Assembly (NCBI GenBank): GCA_963812155.1 | Contig: CAWETW010000003.1 | Location: 160,001-224,000, forward strand | Source of the DNA: Vulcanimicrobiota bacterium | Lineage (GTDB): Bacteria > Vulcanimicrobiota > Vulcanimicrobiia > Vulcanimicrobiales > Vulcanimicrobiaceae | Reading direction: 5' to 3' | Length of the DNA: 64,000 bases | Shown: positions 27,840 through 35,957 of the stretch, piece after piece | Numbering within the stretch: the first letter of the stretch is position 1 | How the letters are laid out: each line of letters opens with the position of its first letter | The notes under the pieces: model-generated | Databases searched by the model: none | Told to the model about the DNA's origin: nothing | The model's input: only the letters and a program-made list of their open reading frames with translations | Program-made: the position numbers and the translations under genes

Positions 27840-27859
27840 AAGGTGACTGAAGTTACCTT
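27840..27859. promoter_or_regulatory. Palindromic operator-like site upstream of the sulfate ABC operon
   Basis: AAGGTGAC-TGAA-GTTACCTT; related copies at 31843 and 42303. Confidence 0.55.
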
Positions 27860-27902
27860 TGCCTGGCTACCGTCTCGAGCCTTTAAGGAGCCTCCCACGA
27901 CC

Positions 27903-28931
27903 ATGCACCGGCCTCGGAACATCCTCGCCCTCTTCACGGCGGCTACCCTCCTATTCGGCGCCGGCCTTCCATCGAAGACCAACGCCGCCGGGACGCTGAC
28001 GATATTGAACGTCTCGTTCGACCCGACGCGCGAACTCTACAACGACTTCAACGCACAGTTCGTCAAGTTTTGGCGTGCCAAATCGGGACAGACCGTCAAC
28101 GTCGAGCAATCCAACGGCGGCTCCGGCAAACAGGCACGGGCCGTGATCGACGGCCTTCAGGCCGACGTCGTCACGCTGGCGCTCGCCTACGACGTCGACG
28201 CCATCGCGCAGAACGCGAAACTGTTGCCGGAGAACTGGCAATCGCGTTTGCCCGACAACAGCGCTCCCTACACGTCGACGATCGTCTTTCTGGTGCGCAA
28301 AGGCAATCCGAAGAAAATCCACGACTGGAACGACCTCATCAAACCCGGCGTTTCGGTGATCATGCCCAATCCCAAAACGTCCGGCGGAGCGCGCTGGAAC
28401 TTTTTGGCGGCGTGGGCATACGCGCTGAAGCGTCCCGGCGGGAACCCAGGGCGCGCGCGCGATTTCGTCGCGAGGCTCTACAAAAACGTGCCCGTGCTCG
28501 ACTCAGGCGCGCGCGGTTCGACGACGACGTTCGTCGAGCGCGGCTTGGGCGACGTGCTCGTTGGTTGGGAAAGCGACGCCCTGCTCGCGACGCACACGCT
28601 CGGCCCGCAGAAATTTGAAATGGTCATTCCGTCGCTGAGCATTCTTGCGGAGCCGTCGGTTGCGCTCGTGGATAAAGTGGCCGACGCGAAAGGAACCCGC
28701 GCGGTGGCGCAAGCGTACCTCCAGTATCTCTACACTCCGCAAGGGCAAGAGATCATCGCTCGCCATTTCTTCCGTCCGCGGCTGGCGTCGGTGACGAAAC
28801 GCTACGCGTCGACGTTCGCAAACGTCAAAACCGTGACCGTCGACAAGACGTTCGGCGGCTGGCAGAACGCGCAAAAAACGTACTTCGCCGATGGCGGTAT
28901 CTTCGACCAAATCTATCAACCGAGTCAGTAG
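27903..28931 (+). CDS. sbp: Sulfate ABC transporter substrate-binding protein
   Basis: [50 protein letters not shown]. Confidence 0.96.
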
Positions 28932-28942
28932 AAAAAGACGTC

Positions 28943-29803
28943 ATGGCTATCACGCTGCGGCGGCGCAGCATCGTGCCCGGCTTCGGGCTGACGCTCGGAT
29001 TTACGGTGCTGTACCTCAGCCTCATGGTGTTGATTCCGCTGTCGGTGGCGTTCTGGAAAGCGTCGTCGCTCGGCGTGGGAGCGTTTTGGCACATCGTTAC
29101 GGCGCCGCGCGCGGTCGCATCCTACGAGGTGACCTTCGGATGCTCGCTCGTCGCCGCGACGATCAACATCGTCTTCGGACTGCTCACCGCGTGGGTGCTC
29201 GTTCGCTACCGGTTCCCGCTGAAACGGCTTTTCGATACGCTGGTAGACTTGCCGTTTGCTTTGCCGACGGCCGTTGCGGGCATCGCTCTGACGGCCATCT
29301 ACGCATCGAACGGTTGGCTCGGAAAGCCATTGCTGGCGCTCGGCATCCACGCCGCGTACTCGCGCATCGGCATCGTGATCGCGTTGACGTTCATCGGACT
29401 GCCCTTCGTCGTGCGAACGGTCCAACCGGTGCTCCAAGATCTCGATGCGGAGTTCGAGGAAGCGGCGGCGAGTCTCGGGGCGGGCCGCCTGCAAACGTTT
29501 GCGCGCGTGCTGCTTCCGACGATCTTCCCGGCCGCGCTGACCGGCTTTGCGCTGGCATTCGCCCGGGCGGTCGGGGAGTACGGCTCGGTGATTTTCATCG
29601 CGGGCAACATGCCGATGCGAACCGAGATCACGCCGCTGCTCATCGTCACGAAGCTCGAGCAATACGACTATGCCGGCGCGACGGCGATTGCGGTGGCGAT
29701 GCTGATCGTTTCCTTTGTGATGCTGCTCACGATCAACGTGCTGCAGCATTGGAGCACGACGCAGCGTGAGGAACGTTCGGCCGCAGAGGCGCCCAGTGGC
29801 TAA
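28943..29803 (+). CDS. cysT: Sulfate ABC transporter permease CysT
   Basis: PGFGLTLG, DLPFALPTAVAG, PFVVRTVQP, EEAAASLGA, GEYGSV. Confidence 0.96.
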   Translation: MAITLRRRSIVPGFGLTLGFTVLYLSLMVLIPLSVAFWKASSLGVGAFWHIVTAPRAVASYEVTFGCSLVAATINIVFGLLTAWVLVRYRFPLKRLFDTLVDLPFALPTAVAGIALTAIYASNGWLGKPLLALGIHAAYSRIGIVIALTFIGLPFVVRTVQPVLQDLDAEFEEAAASLGAGRLQTFARVLLPTIFPAALTGFALAFARAVGEYGSVIFIAGNMPMRTEITPLLIVTKLEQYDYAGATAIAVAMLIVSFVMLLTINVLQHWSTTQREERSAAEAPSG

Positions 29804-30674
29804 AGTGCTGACGTGGAACCAGCCGCAACCGATCGATCTTCCGGCTGCGGCGCGCGCGAGCGCGACGTCGGAGCCGGTCGCGGTGCGGTGGCTGCTGATT
29901 GCCGTCGCCGTCGCGTTCTTGTCGCTCTTTATTTTTCTCCCGCTCGCGATCGTCTTTGCGACGGCATTTCGCAGCGGCCTCGCCGGATTCGCGCACACCT
30001 TTACCGACGCCGACACGTTGGCGTCCATTCGGCTGACGTTGATCGCCGCCGCCATCGCGGTGCCGATGAACGTTGCGTTCGGCGTGACCGCGGCATGGGC
30101 CATCGGCAAATTCGAGTTCGTCGGAAAGAGCCTGCTCATCACGCTGATCGATCTGCCGTTCTCCGTTTCGCCGGTGGTGGCCGGACTCGTGTTCGTGCTG
30201 CTCTTGGGCGCTCAAGGATTGATCGGACCGTGGCTGATCGCGCACGGCATACGCATCATCTTCGCGATCCCGGGCATCGTGCTGGTCACCGCATTCGTGA
30301 CGTTCCCATTCGTGGCGCGCGAACTGCTGCCGACGATGCAGGCGCAGGGCAACGACGAAGAAGAGGCCGCGTTGGCGCTCGGTGCGAGCGGATGGAAGAC
30401 CTTTTGTCGCGTGACCCTGCCCAAAGTAAAGTGGGCGCTGCTCTACGGCGTCATCCTCTGCAACGCGCGCGCAATGGGCGAGTTCGGCGCGGTCTCGGTC
30501 GTTTCGGGCCACATCCGCGGCCTCACCGATACGATGCCCCTTCAGATCGAGTTTTTGTACAACGACTATCAATACGTGGCGGCCTTCGCGGTCGCGTCGC
30601 TGCTCGCGCTGCTCGCGCTGGTGACGCTCGTCGTGAAGACCGTCGTTGAATGGAGAACCGGCCATGAGCATTAG
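29796..30674 (+). CDS. cysW: Sulfate ABC transporter permease CysW
   Basis: [41 protein letters not shown]. Confidence 0.96.
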
Positions 30675-31716
30675 CCTGCGCGGGATCAGCAAATCGTTCG
30701 GCAGTTTCAACGCGCTTGCGGGCGTCGATCTCGACATTCCCGCTGGAAAGTTGATGGCGCTGCTCGGGCCGTCGGGCTCGGGGAAGACCACCTTATTGCG
30801 CATCGTGGCGGGCTTGGAATACGCCGACGCGGGGTCGGTGCGGTTCGACGGTACCGACGTCACGAGTCACTCGCCCGGCGAGCGCCGGGTCGGATTCGTC
30901 TTTCAGCACTACGCGCTGTTCCGCCACATGACGGTCTTCGAAAACGTCGCGTTCGGATTGCGCGTGCGTTCGCGGTCGTCGCGCCCGACCGAAGCCCGGA
31001 TTCGCGAGAAAGTCTACGATTTACTGAATCTCATCCAGCTGCGTAGTCAAGCGTCGCGTTATCCGTCGCAACTCTCGGGCGGCCAGCGTCAGCGCGTCGC
31101 GCTGGCGCGCGCGTTGGCGGTCGAGCCGAGCGTGCTGCTTCTCGACGAGCCGTTCGGTGCGCTGGATGCAAAGGTTCGGCTGGAGCTGCGGCGTTGGCTG
31201 CGTCACCTGCACGAAGAAGCGAATATCACGAGCGTTTTCGTCACCCACGATCAAGAAGAGGCGCTGGAGGTTGCCGATCGCGTTGCCGTGATGAATCACG
31301 GACGCATCGAACAAGTCGGTGCTCCCGAAGACGTGTATAACGACCCTGCGACGTCGTTCGTCTTCAACTTTCTGGGAAGCGTCAATCTTTTCCACGCGCG
31401 CCTCGAGCACGGCACCGCCTACATCCACGACAGCGCGACCGAGCATCTCGGATTCGTACGTCCGCATTTGCTCGAGATCTCGCGCCGCCGGCCCGACAAT
31501 GGAAATCACTTCCGGGCCGTCGCCAAACGCATCCATGCCGCCGGTCCTCTGGTCAAGGTCGAGGCGGTCACCGAATGGGGGACGGCCGTCCACGCCGAGC
31601 TCTCGCAGGAGCGCTTTCGCGAACTCGCACTTGCGACCGGAGAGGAGATTTTCATGGCTCCGACCGACCTGCGGGTCTTCAAGAACGGGGAAGGTAAGGC
31701 AGCGGCCCAGGCTTGA
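30664..31716 (+). CDS. cysA: Sulfate ABC transporter ATP-binding protein
   Basis: [34 protein letters not shown]. Confidence 0.96.
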
Positions 31717-31842
31717 GACCGCGGTAACGCCCCGTCTGGCTTAGGTCTCGCGGCGTATGGCCGGGTTTAGCGTAACTCCAAAGCTAACCAGGGTCATGTT
31801 GCCTCGTAGAGAAAGGTACCCCAATCACTTTCCTCAAAGGGG

Positions 31843-31862
31843 AAGGTGACCGCGGTTTACTT
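31843..31862. promoter_or_regulatory. Palindromic operator-like site upstream of the TauE pair
   Basis: AAGGTGAC-CGCG-GTTTACTT, preceded by a weaker box ending TCACTTT. Confidence 0.45.
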
Positions 31863-31922
31863 TGAGGGCATCGTCCTGCGTGATTGTAGCGCGGATATTG
31901 CCCTGAAGCGGAGAGGTACCTC

Positions 31923-32708
31923 GTGACTCTCACTATCGAGATCGTACTGGTTGGACTGGTCGTCGGGACGATCGTCGGGCTTACCGGCGTCGGCGGCGCG
32001 AGCATCATGACGCCGCTGCTCATTCTCGTTCTCAAGGTCAATCCGCTCGTCGCTGTCGGCTCCGATTTGCTGTACAGCGTTCCAACTAAGCTTTACGGCG
32101 CCTACCTGCACAACAAGCAGGGCACCGTCAACCCTGAGATCGTGAAGGCACTGCTTTTGGGCGGCCTGCCTGCGTCGCTGGTAGGCCTCGGGGTCCTCTT
32201 CTGGCTTCGGCACCACGTCGACGTCAAAGCGCTCGAGCTCACGACGCGGCACGCAATCGGATACGTCTTGTTCGTCGCCGCCGTCGTGATTCTGGTGCAG
32301 CCGTTCCTGTGGCGGCGCGCTCTCCCTACCGCGAACGCCGACTTCGAATGGCTCCCGGGACAGCGCGTTCGCGTCATCACGATCGGCGCAATCGTCGGCC
32401 TCATCGTCACGGCGACTTCGATCGGAAGCGGATCCGTGACACTGCCGTTGCTGTCGCTCTCGCTCCCGTTAGTCGGAATATCGACGCTGGTTGGCTCGGA
32501 CATCGCCTTTGCGGCGTTCTTGATTCCCGCCGCGGCGGCCGGGCGATGGAGCATGGGAGACGTGAACCTTCCGCTGGTTCTGAAGCTGCTCTGCGGATCG
32601 CTTCCCGGAGTCTATATCGGCAGCAAGCTGTGCGGCCGGCTGAGTCAGTCGTGGCTGCGGCCGATGGTTGCCGTGACGCTCGTTTTCGTCGGCACGCGTT
32701 TGATCTGA
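31923..32708 (+). CDS. Sulfite exporter TauE/SafE family protein
   Basis: GLTGVGGASIMTPLL, AVGSDL, TSIGSG, LVGSDI. Confidence 0.92.
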   Translation: MTLTIEIVLVGLVVGTIVGLTGVGGASIMTPLLILVLKVNPLVAVGSDLLYSVPTKLYGAYLHNKQGTVNPEIVKALLLGGLPASLVGLGVLFWLRHHVDVKALELTTRHAIGYVLFVAAVVILVQPFLWRRALPTANADFEWLPGQRVRVITIGAIVGLIVTATSIGSGSVTLPLLSLSLPLVGISTLVGSDIAFAAFLIPAAAAGRWSMGDVNLPLVLKLLCGSLPGVYIGSKLCGRLSQSWLRPMVAVTLVFVGTRLI

Positions 32709-32822
32709 ACGGCTCCCAGGGCTGGTAGGCGGACGGTCTGCCGGGAGACCGTTCCAACCGGCGCGAACCGTCCCAGGGCCTGAGCAGCGGCCAAAGGTCG
32801 TCGGGCGCGGCCTTGGAGTTAC

Positions 32823-33614
32823 GTGGAAGTGAAAGTCGACATCGAGCTCGTCCTCATCGGCTTAATCGTCGGGTTCCTCGTTGGTTTGACGGGTGTCGGC
32901 GGCGGAAGCATTATGACGCCGTTGCTCGTATCGGTCCTCAGAGTCAATCCGCTGACGGCAGTCGGAACCGATTTACTTTACAGCGTGCCGACGCGCCTAT
33001 ATGCCGCTTTCCTGCATCGTCAGCAGGGAACGGTGAACTCCCACATCGTGAAGGCCCTGCTTTTGGGCGGCTTGCCGTCTTCATTTGCCGGACTCGCGTT
33101 GCTCTTCTGGCTACGCCATCACGTCGACATCGTGCTCATCGAGTTATGGACGCGGCGCGCGATCGGCGTCACGCTGCTGCTGGCAGCGGCGATGATTCTT
33201 GCTCAGCCGTGGTTGAAGCGTCTCGAACTGCGCACGTGGACACCGGAGTTTGAGTGGAGGCCCCGCCAAAAGGCGAGGGTGATGACCATCGGCGCCGTCG
33301 TCGGTTTTATCGTAACGCTCACGTCCATCGGGAGCGGCGCGGTGACGCTTCCGCTTTTAGCGCTGGCGATGCCCCTCGTTGGATTGCCGGAATTAATCGG
33401 ATCCGATATTGCGTTCGCCGCATTTCTGATTCCGGCCGCGGCATTCGGCCGGTGGACGATGGGTGACGTCAACGTCGGTTTAGCCATGAGCCTGCTGATC
33501 GGATCTCTTCCGGGCGTGTATCTCGGAAGCAAACTCTGCCGGCGCCTGCACGCGCGCTGGCTGCGCCCCGCGGTCGCGGTGACGCTGCTGTTCGTCGGCG
33601 TTCGTCTTATCTAG
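32823..33614 (+). CDS. Sulfite exporter TauE/SafE family protein (tandem paralogue)
   Basis: GLTGVGGGSIMTPLL, AVGTDL, TSIGSG; colinear with the preceding gene. Confidence 0.92.
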   Translation: MEVKVDIELVLIGLIVGFLVGLTGVGGGSIMTPLLVSVLRVNPLTAVGTDLLYSVPTRLYAAFLHRQQGTVNSHIVKALLLGGLPSSFAGLALLFWLRHHVDIVLIELWTRRAIGVTLLLAAAMILAQPWLKRLELRTWTPEFEWRPRQKARVMTIGAVVGFIVTLTSIGSGAVTLPLLALAMPLVGLPELIGSDIAFAAFLIPAAAFGRWTMGDVNVGLAMSLLIGSLPGVYLGSKLCRRLHARWLRPAVAVTLLFVGVRLI

Positions 33615-33714
33615 CGAACCCCTTCTTCAGAGGTTCCGTCGCGACGTTCGAGTTTATAACGTGTGGGTAAGTACAGGTTTCTGTGGAGGCGTTGTGGAGC
33701 GTCCGTAAAGACGC

Positions 33715-33743
33715 TTGTACGCGGGTTTTTGCTTTGATACCAT
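33715..33743 (+). promoter_or_regulatory. Sigma70-type promoter
   Basis: TTGTAC, 17 nt, TACCAT with extended -10 TG. Confidence 0.65.
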
Positions 33744-33746
33744 GGT

Positions 33747-33950
33747 CGCACTTCCCGTTTCATTGGAAGTGCGGATTGTAAAGAGCCGCGGTCCACGCAC
33801 GTTAGCGGTCGGCGTGTAAAAGCGTCGATTCGGGTGCCTGGAGCGAACCGGACTCAGAAGACGTCAGTGAGAGATCGGAAACGTTCTCGCGCAGGTGGGG
33901 AAGAGCCGGAGAGGGCAAAGCCCGTAGCGCTACGCTGCGGGCTTTGTCGT
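33747..33950 (+). ncRNA. Structured ~200-nt non-coding RNA, raiA-motif-like (assignment tentative)
   Basis: Lies between a promoter and a terminator-like hairpin, with no credible ORF. Has several helices and the ordered blocks UCCACG, GAGC, AGAAG, AGUGAGAG, GAAAC, GCAGG, GUGGGG, AAGAGCC. Confidence 0.55.
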
Positions 33951-33952
33951 TC
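33914..33952 (+). terminator. Terminator-like hairpin
   Basis: ggcaaagcccgtagcg-cta-cgctgcgggctttgtc, 16-bp stem, weak U tract. Confidence 0.6.
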
Positions 33953-33972
33953 CGTGCGAAGAAGAACGTGCG

Positions 33973-35957
33973 ATGAACGGCCGGCGAAGCGTTGAACGCT
34001 CGCGGATCGAGCTTACGCTGCGCGGCCTCATACTCGGCGCAGCGATTACGCTGGTCTTTACCGCCGCAAACGTCTATCTCGGGCTGAAGGTCGGCCTCAC
34101 GTTCGCTTCAACGATTCCCGCCGCCGTCATATCGATGGGCGTGCTGCGCGCGTTCAAGAACGCGACGATCTTCGAAAATAACATCGTGCAGACGGTCGCG
34201 TCGGCAGCGGGCACGATCTCGGCCGTGATTTTCGTGTTGCCGGGATTGGTGATGGTCGGCTGGTGGAGCGGTTTTCCGTTTTGGGAATCCTTCGCGCTGT
34301 GTGCGATCGGCGGCACGCTCGGCGTCATGTACAGCGTTCCGTTGCGGCGCGCGCTCGTGACGGAGTCGGATCTTCCCTATCCCGAAGGCGTCGCCGCCGC
34401 CGAGGTGCTCAAGGTCGGCGTGGGCGGCGGCGAGGCGAGCGACTGGAGCACAACCGCCTCGGGCTGGTCGCCCTGGTGACGGGCTCGCTCGCATCCGCAG
34501 GCTTCGCAGCCATCGTTGCCACGCGGCTATTTGCGGCCGAGATTGCCGGCTACTTTCGCTCGGGTGCGGTGGCGACGGGATTCGGCTTTTCGTTTTCGCT
34601 CGCGCTCGTCGGCGCCGGTCATCTCATTGGTCTCTCCGTCGGCCTCGCAATCCTCACCGGCTTGATCGTTGCCTGGGGCATCGCGACGCCGCTGCTCACC
34701 GCGCTCCATCCGGTGGCAGGCCCGGCAGCTGCCGTCGCCACGTTCGTGTGGGCGCACCAGGTGCGATTCGTCGGCGCCGGCGCGATCGGCGTTGCGGCGC
34801 TTTGGACGTTGGGCCGCTTGGCGAAACCCGTGTGGGGCGGCGTTGCGTCGGCGATTGCCGCGTCGCGCCGCCGCTCCGGCGGCGACGAACTGCCGCGGAC
34901 CGAACGGGATTTGCCGATCGCGCTCGTGGGCATCATCGCGCTCGCGTGCCTCATTCCGCTCGCAGCCTTACTAGCGTTCTTTCTGCACGGCACTGCGCTG
35001 CAGTCGCAAGCCGTGCCGCTCGCGCTCGCTGCGGTCGCATACGTCGTCATCGTCGGTTTTCTGGTTGCGGCCGCGTGCGGGTATATGGCCGGCCTCATCG
35101 GTTCGTCGAACAGTCCGGTCTCCGGGCTGGCGATTTTGGCGGTCATCGGCGCGTCGCTCCTGCTCGTGATTTTCGGCGACCGTTCCACGCCGGCCGCGGC
35201 CTCGGCGCTCGTCGCGTTCGCGCTTTTCGTGACGGCTGTGCTCGTGTGCGTTGCAACGATCGCCAACGACAATTTGCAAGATCTCAAGACCGGCCAACTC
35301 GTCGACGCGACGCCGTGGCGTCAACAGGTCGCGCTCGTTTTCGGCGTCGGCATGGGCGCGATTGTCATTCCGCCGATTCTCGGATTGCTCAACCACGCGT
35401 ATGGATTCGCCGGCGCGCCGCATACCGGAACGGTCGCGCAGCCGCTGCCGGCGCCGCAAGCGACGCTCATTTCGGCGCTGGCCAAAGGCGTCATTCAAGG
35501 ACAGATCGATTGGCGGCTCATCGGCGCGGGAGCGCTGGTGGGGCTGGCCGCAGTCGCGCTGGACGAGCTCCTGCGCGTCACGACGCGGTTTCGTTTGCCG
35601 CCGCTGGCCATCGGTTTGGGCATTTACTTGCCGGCCTCGACGACGGCGCCGGTCGTTTTGGGCGCCGTGCTGGGCTGGTATTACAATCGCTGGTCGGATC
35701 GCAGCCGCAACGCCGCCAAAGCAAAGCAACTCGGCGTGCTGACGGCGTCGGGATTGATCGTCGGGGAGAGTCTCTTCGGAGTGCTGTTGGCCGGCTTGAT
35801 CGTCGTAACTAACCGCGCCGAGCCCCTCGGGCTAGCCGGCGACGCGTTCGCCGTGCCCGCAACCGTCATCGGAACGATTGCGTTCGTGCTGGCCGTCTTC
35901 GGTCTCTACGCCTTCACCGCCCGGCTGGGGACGGCTAACTCAAAAGCTTCGGAGTGA
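33973..35957 (+). CDS. OPT family oligopeptide transporter (frameshift near 34445)
   Basis: ELTLRG, YLGLKVGLTFASTIPAAVIS, ENNIVQT, LPYPEG; GSSNSPVSG, NDNLQDLKTG, APQATL. Confidence 0.93.

Follow-up and report, generated by a model that had tools for sequence, protein, structure and literature searches.

A multi-copy structured RNA family with DnaA-like promoter boxes, predicted from genomes of one order of Vulcanimicrobiota

The window, a 64,000-nt stretch of a Vulcanimicrobiota contig, carries one copy of a predicted RNA gene that belongs, judging from comparative sequence analysis, to a structured RNA family that is new but of a general kind already known. The best explanation of its features is that it is probably a trans-acting, protein-binding RNA gene, activated by DnaA and transcribed on its own. 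Action in trans is very likely; binding of a protein through the shape of the RNA is predicted with less assurance, although we favour it. No Rfam family and no publication describing the RNA were found in the open-access literature searched. With the family, a phylum for which no RNA motif paper was found in that literature would gain a structured RNA class that is complex and spans an order; for the window itself, it corrects a tempting assignment to raiA or a riboswitch.

The element lies in a 358-nt gap with a TauE gene on one side and an OPT transporter gene on the other, and its parts are listed in Table 1. A preliminary description of this DNA had recognized a TTGTAC-17-TACCAT promoter in the gap, followed by a 5′ hairpin, a nested arm, a GAAAC-capped stem and a terminator hairpin. 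All of these are present in the sequence, the hexamer core of the promoter is conserved in homologues, and the claim of an undescribed, self-contained structured RNA of ~200 nt with its own promoter and terminator is supported. Overlooked were three DnaA-like boxes (33662-33701), hairpin P2, the family pseudoknot and a second copy in the genome. A consensus-based scan flagged neither the promoter (0 found) nor the terminator, whose U tract is weak. TTG and TA..T of the promoter are invariant in 44/44 rows of alignment A7, the −10 element could be placed in 89 of 91 copies, and all 89 copies examined finish in a hairpin followed by a mostly U-rich tail. The fold of the 211-nt window stretch, terminator included, has a z-score of −3.91, and 0/200 shuffles were as low.

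Table 1. Predicted parts of the RNA gene in the window and its two neighbouring genes (positions in the window)
Feature	Position	Strand	Basis and remarks
TauE/SafE membrane protein	32823..33614	+	Pfam TauE; upstream neighbour, outside the element
DnaA-like box at about −88, TGTGGGTAA	33662..33670	+	Position kept across 75 promoters; similar boxes precede dnaA
DnaA-like box at about −67	33682..33690	+	TG.G invariant in 44/44 rows
DnaA-like box at about −56	33693..33701	+	Positional conservation; lost in one subtype
Predicted sigma70-type promoter	33715..33743	+	TTGTAC 33715-33720, 17 nt, TG-extended TACCAT 33738-33743
Predicted noncoding RNA, ~205 nt including terminator	33748..33952	+	Covariance models R1-R3; covariation
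P1, 5′-terminal hairpin, ACUUC/GAAG core	33749..33771	+	98.2% of cells paired, mostly by conservation
P2 hairpin; its loop supplies the 5′ pseudoknot strand in the family	33771..33789	+	96.2% paired; 2/4 pairs with two-sided changes; pseudoknot test
P3 arm with K-turn-type internal loop	33790..33844	+	GA/GA in 55/66 homologues; altered in the window copy; arm optional in the family
P4 domain: outer helix, CGUC-A-GU/AC-A-GGCG-type conserved helix, purine-rich loop, apical stem	33845..33909	+	Covariation; partner-swap test
3′ pseudoknot strand position	33908..33917	+	Degenerate in the window copy, best helix 3 bp
Intrinsic-terminator-like hairpin, weak U tract	33914..33953	+	Fold; hairpin common to homologues
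OPT family oligopeptide transporter	33973..35957	+	TIGR00733; neighbour; frame broken near 34444, where 1 nt is missing by comparison with G001

Directly 5′ of the RNA, positions 27843-33614 hold sulfate ABC transporter genes and then two tandem TauE paralogues, ~69% identical to each other; nad biosynthesis genes lie divergently further upstream. The OPT frame is split at ~34444, where the window has one base fewer than G001, either through an assembly error or through a recent break.

BLAST gave matches in 17 of 61 related genomes (E ≤ 0.1), with long matches in eight genomes of the genus, including this genome. The covariance model R1, made from those eight OPT-side copies, matched 68 of 151 genomes, with 93 matches across 75 loci; three matches (L088, L089 and L091) were dropped as lying inside coding regions. 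Model R2, built from 66 rows, matched 53/71 family genomes and, weakly, 2/79 others. Inspection of 23 further loci showed diverged copies in the DNA behind the WYL gene, one of them in another family of the order. Model R3, which covers the promoter and P1-P2 and comprises 44 rows (eight chosen for WYL adjacency), gave full-length strong matches in 66 of 151 phylum genomes, 114 copies altogether. The carriers are this genome and 63 of 71 family relatives, plus single genomes from a second and a third family. These counts are lower bounds because the search pre-filter drops copies; R1, for example, missed the second copy in this genome (G000, C1:636477-636649). That copy is better preserved, scoring 104.7 bits with R2 versus 89.2 for the window copy, and lies between a WYL-WCX gene and genes for a secreted-looking 170-aa protein and an aromatic amino acid lyase.

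A GTDB pattern scan yielded at least 118 loci. Among the matches listed, those scoring with R2 included records titled Vulcanimicrobiota/Eremiobacteraeota, Baltobacteraceae, Ca. Cybelea and Ca. Tumulicola, as well as two titled Verrucomicrobiia and Acidiferrales; loci from other phyla, again among the matches listed, had no R2 score apart from one 19-bit match. The named carrier records are Vulcanimicrobiota/Eremiobacterota, and the RNA recurs in one order of uncultured soil bacteria. The 80 metagenome matches listed are all on contigs over 1 kb, and two pattern matches on viral contigs did not score with R2. The match in G047 and short R3 matches in other families (L298-L301) were set aside as promoter-only or chance matches. 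L297:1586-1726 (G043), from a third family of the class, may be a minimal copy with boxes, P1 and P2, and is a single case. At G068:C6:325635-327605, the RNA and the WYL gene form an exact inverted duplicate near a contig end, probably an assembly artefact.

The fold was evaluated on A6, a MAFFT alignment made from sequence only and not fitted to structure, which holds 66 of 75 de-duplicated copies; near-duplicates and rows with large deletions or insertions were left out, and two rows come from G169 (L032), also the source of one tandem example. G066, G033, G156 and G035 contribute to tallies only, and none of the conclusions depends solely on these genomes. The P1-P2-P3-P4 model paired 93.5% of 2039 cells, compared with 32-43% for slid controls, and 20 of 31 pairs change on both sides. 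The conservation and covariation in relatives that the preliminary description had proposed as a check were thus found. Two long-range pairings put forward at the same time did not hold up: all four CCAC/GTGG pairs form in only 1/66 homologues, and CTTCCC/GGGAAG pairs in 28.4% of cells versus 28.1% after shuffling.

In a K-turn, two stems flank a 3-nt bulge, after which come tandem GA/AG pairs. GA/GA occurs at the corresponding internal loop of P3 in 55 of 66 family rows, and the flanking helices covary, so that the family has a predicted K-turn, altered in the window copy itself. The P3 arm is shortened in L042, L046 and L086, and P4 is absent from one copy. For the pseudoknot, in which the P2 loop pairs with the 3′ tail, own partners gave −4.93 kcal/mol versus −3.73 ± 0.19 kcal/mol for swapped partners (0/5000 permutations), six control pairings gave p values of 0.02-0.45, and the outer P4 helix gave −7.87 versus −5.23 kcal/mol; as the permutations ignore kinship and kin are not independent, these figures overstate the effect. 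In one genus with arrays of 2-4 copies, both pseudoknot strands have been replaced together (loop GCGAGAA, tail UUCUCG). The 3′ strand touches the 5′ base of the terminator. Covariation supports four predicted helical domains, the K-turn of the optional arm and the pseudoknot. The natural minimal and swapped variants delimit a core (P1, P2 and pseudoknot) for structure work.

Invariant and near-invariant columns sit in P1, P2, the K-turn, GAA and P4. Because the best-conserved bases are thus helices and internal loops, the RNA would act by shape, as a decoy or scaffold, rather than by pairing to mRNAs. Sibling copies, a shared regulator site and terminators do resemble base-pairing regulatory sRNA families, in which sibling sRNAs stand under one transcription factor; such a family is nevertheless improbable here, given these conserved columns, among which no conserved unpaired seed stands out, and the occupation of the sole conserved loop by the pseudoknot.

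The window copy appears to be a drifting, diverging paralogue of this multi-copy gene, since it has lost the pseudoknot (best helix 3 bp), has altered GA pairs in the K-turn and, with a branch length of 0.39, sits on the longest branch in its clade.

With a simple gene caller, and after removal of three false loci, 72 loci were classed: 42 have the next gene on the opposite strand, 29 have it on the same strand and one has none; the RNA is therefore not consistently 5′ of a same-strand gene, as a riboswitch would be. Same-strand neighbours vary and include OPT, MFS, tannase-like, YqeY, MutS, SpoIIE and pyrophosphatase genes. Among 66 downstream proteins scanned (of 74; near-duplicates left out, three from false loci), 33 were WYL-WCX and seven OPT proteins, and the rest were varied. 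Tandem arrays contain 2-4 copies, each with its own promoter and terminator. This layout is that of a predicted independent gene, with OPT as the neighbour of a moved paralogue.

OPT is directly next in 13/72 loci and in 19/31 further loci, mostly of one genus (the two sets overlap), and one gene further away in 2/31; homologues do not always precede OPT, as had been asked at the outset. The OPT-side copies form one clade together with other moved copies. The move of the window copy to its place beside OPT would date to an ancestor shared by a few genera, with the pseudoknot lost later. Only ~25 nt separate its terminator from the OPT start codon, leaving no room for a separate promoter, so OPT may be expressed there by read-through from the RNA gene. 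A role in cis at OPT-side loci may exist, as OPT directly follows in 19 of the 31 further loci.

The preliminary description had offered a terminator-controlling leader for OPT as one reading. The lack of room for an OPT promoter in the window agrees with this; the preponderance of loci facing an opposite-strand gene and the complete promoter-terminator units of tandem copies mostly speak against it. In its general form, this reading is a ligand- or protein-responsive attenuator (riboswitch) setting read-through into OPT or other downstream genes. Attenuation is conceivable because the 3′ pseudoknot strand abuts the terminator base, and the short distance to OPT, the weak U tract in the window and the recurrence of OPT as the next gene would fit. 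We nevertheless regard it as unlikely: 42/72 loci have no same-strand gene to control, every arrayed copy has a promoter, the neighbours share no metabolic theme, the OPT-side copies fall in a single clade with other moved copies, and the window copy has lost the very pseudoknot that would contact the terminator.

In 61 of 66 genomes, this one included through its second copy, the RNA lies no more than 8 kb from the gene for a DriD-like WYL regulator; in 60 of them it does so on the opposite strand, 3′ of the WYL gene and convergent with it. The count is inflated by the 8/44 R3 rows picked for WYL adjacency. R1, built on eight OPT-side copies alone, led to 33 WYL-side loci. Seven genomes have the WYL gene without a strong RNA match, and one genome keeps the RNA 312 kb away. 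The linkage could be plain synteny. The best PDB matches of the WYL protein are WYL-domain proteins (E about 3e-15), which we take to be DriD entries. As the leading candidate for a protein partner of the RNA, this neighbouring regulator is put forward tentatively.

The far side of the main locus usually holds the secreted-looking 170-aa protein, which has no Pfam family, and the aromatic amino acid lyase. The 170-aa protein (L079:2757-3272) is conserved, with a signal-peptide-like start and several His-rich motifs (a possible metal site); its only Atlas look-alikes are 'hypothetical', and a paralogue is found in this genome at C1:792289-792792.

Same-strand DnaA-like boxes, matched to the DnaA-box consensus (≤2 mismatches), are present upstream of the RNA at least once in 75/75 regions and at least twice in 62/75. 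They peak at −88, −67 and −56, with weaker peaks at −99, −109 and −118. A reverse-strand box occurs in 1/75 regions, and two boxes were seen in 4/5000 random genome windows, a background of mostly coding DNA unmatched to intergenic regions. The same box variants stand upstream of dnaA in 5/5 genomes. In a naive genome-wide scan for box clusters, the two RNA promoters ranked only 7th and 18th of 53, amid repeats, so clustering is not distinctive by itself; the distinctive feature is the fixed box position. Fixed placement and likeness to the lineage's own dnaA boxes are what a DnaA-controlled promoter would present. Boxes upstream of the −35 element suit activation, and activation of the RNA promoter by DnaA is likely. 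An interpretation as MraZ boxes was rejected, as no such boxes precede mraZ in this genome. The sole other R3 promoter match in this genome precedes minC (C2:410410-410468; L289:1501-1559), which thus also has DnaA-like boxes upstream. Short R3 matches of similar length occur in other family genomes, and minC may be a conserved member of the DnaA regulon.

The boxes are conserved as well as the RNA is and multiply with copy number, and at the main locus the unit separates genes that otherwise run on one strand, its own end falling at the WYL stop. These features would also fit a unit acting mainly as DNA, with the RNA secondary: a datA-like DnaA sink, or a DnaA-controlled antisense/terminator unit that uncouples WYL from the secreted-protein and hutH-like genes downstream. 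We consider this improbable, since selection on RNA shape is needed to explain both the compensatory changes, which involve 20 pairs, and the swapped pseudoknot, and since moved copies retain boxes and fold away from WYL.

For the DnaA-activated RNA gene, the following course is proposed. DnaA, bound just upstream of the −35 element, would switch the gene on, so that the RNA level would follow initiator activity. In the transcript, P1 and P2 would form, and the 3′ tail beside the terminator would hold the P2 loop fast; the result would be a closed, compact molecule on which the P3 (K-turn) and P4 arms are optional. If DnaA control is true, the RNA would be an RNA-level output of the replication initiator, and a free RNA would link DNA-replication status to a protein partner instead of switching the adjoining transporter. 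Two handles that are rare among orphan RNAs are available, namely phased DnaA-like boxes with every copy and a candidate WYL partner.

ACGAC is present in the promoter spacer of 18/56 WYL-side copies and 0/33 others. It resembles half of the DriD site, ATACGAC-N7-GTCGTAT, as given in PMC10853764. Kinship may account for the split between WYL-side and other copies. A more specific and rather speculative version of the proposal, which we think improbable as a whole, sees here a new class of replication-checkpoint RNA. DnaA would drive its synthesis, and the pseudoknotted RNA would bind the Sm-fold WYL domain of the adjacent DriD-like regulator, where it would serve as an ssDNA decoy. An SOS-independent DNA-damage response would in this way be coupled to initiator status, and the DriD-type half-site ACGAC would provide feedback. 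DriD and PafBC are described as sensing ssDNA. According to PMC11804915, PafBC, a relative, was not activated by a 12-nt single-stranded RNA. This result counts against an activating role and leaves a decoy role possible.

The raiA motif blocks to which parts of the window had been compared are confirmed by the Rfam consensus for raiA; the matching blocks in the window are accidents of the window copy. In the 66 homologues, TCCACG occurs in 2, AGTGAGAG in 1, AAGAGCC in 2, AGAAG in 6, GCAGG in 9, GTGGGG in 12, GAAAC in 34 and GAGC in 37. The suggested reduced raiA variant also failed in both directions of model search. RF03072 had no match in this genome at E ≤ 10 and matched 0/41 genomes, with 135.2 bits in 1/5 control genomes as a positive control; in the reverse test, R2 scored at most 2.9 bits on the control raiA locus.

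The raiA RNA is described, in PMC10861870 and PMC12968392, as single-copy, occurring in Bacillota and Actinomycetota near comFC/raiA. Its defining features, a P1 closing the 5′ and 3′ ends and a P3-P4-PK1-PK2 core, were taken from PMC12968392, PMC10861870, PMC5737381 and the Rfam consensus. A closing P1 is absent from the new RNA, whose 5′ end is a local hairpin and whose 5′/3′ pairing is at shuffle level. The CCAC/GUGG helix of raiA P4 is complete in 1/66 rows only, P3a-P3b with its A-rich loop, PK1 and PK2 have no counterpart in A6 on comparison by eye with the raiA consensus, and comFC/raiA is absent among the neighbours identified. Both RNAs are lineage-stable, independent genes of ~200 nt, structured and pseudoknotted with optional peripheral arms. 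Unlike raiA, the new RNA opens with two local hairpins, has a single pseudoknot to the 3′ tail, and is multi-copy, DnaA-boxed and WYL-linked. On this sequence evidence, we conclude that the window RNA is not a raiA member. Highly diverged descent from raiA, to which the similar size, the independent-gene layout and the words CAGGCGAG and AGUAG, locally like raiA P6/P8, might point, is very improbable in view of the failed reciprocal searches and the missing P1, core, helix and gene neighbours. The RNA may resemble raiA in mode, as an abundant trans-acting RNA.

No other Rfam family matched the window at gathering score, the 6S family (RF00013) named earlier as a possible alternative included; at E ≤ 10, only terminator-type chance matches appeared, and 16 other loci (10 + 6) gave nothing over the RNA at E ≤ 1. 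Likenesses to T-box, TPP, SAM-I, cobalamin and c-di-AMP RNAs were dropped, as none had an Rfam match. The only 6S candidate of this genome (C3:57585-57773, L095) is full-length and scores 38.2 bits, below gathering score. A substitute for a missing housekeeping RNA was rejected, as RNase P, tmRNA and SRP, in addition to the 6S candidate, are present elsewhere. The tmRNA, at C3:921658-922012 of this genome, scores 122 bits with Rfam and was missed by ARAGORN.

Among K-turn and pseudoknot riboswitches, SAM-I, lysine, c-di-GMP-II and T-box were compared. The new RNA shares with them a K-turn-type loop, a terminator-adjacent pseudoknot and, in the window, a leader-like place; unlike them, it has no Rfam match, most copies lack a same-strand gene downstream, and the K-turn arm is dispensable. 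No L7Ae-family K-turn binder was found in 26 genomes. Y RNA/Ro60 loci contain tandem structured RNAs next to nucleic-acid stress regulators, an arrangement like the present one, but the new RNA has no tRNA-like domain; a Y-RNA-like reading is not supported, with TROVE/Ro60 in 1/26 family genomes.

CsrB/RsmY/RsmZ and 6S are protein-sequestering RNAs acting in trans. CsrA is present in 22/26 genomes; a CsrB-like RNA for CsrA is not supported, because GGA words are below shuffled level (3.6 versus 4.5 after letter shuffling; ANGGA/AGGA 0.83 versus 2.03). The new RNA differs from CsrB/Rsm in this depletion and from 6S in having no 6S-type rod. Like both, it is multi-copy, with its own promoter, an upstream activator site and its own terminator, and action in trans through a protein is the mode that we propose for it.
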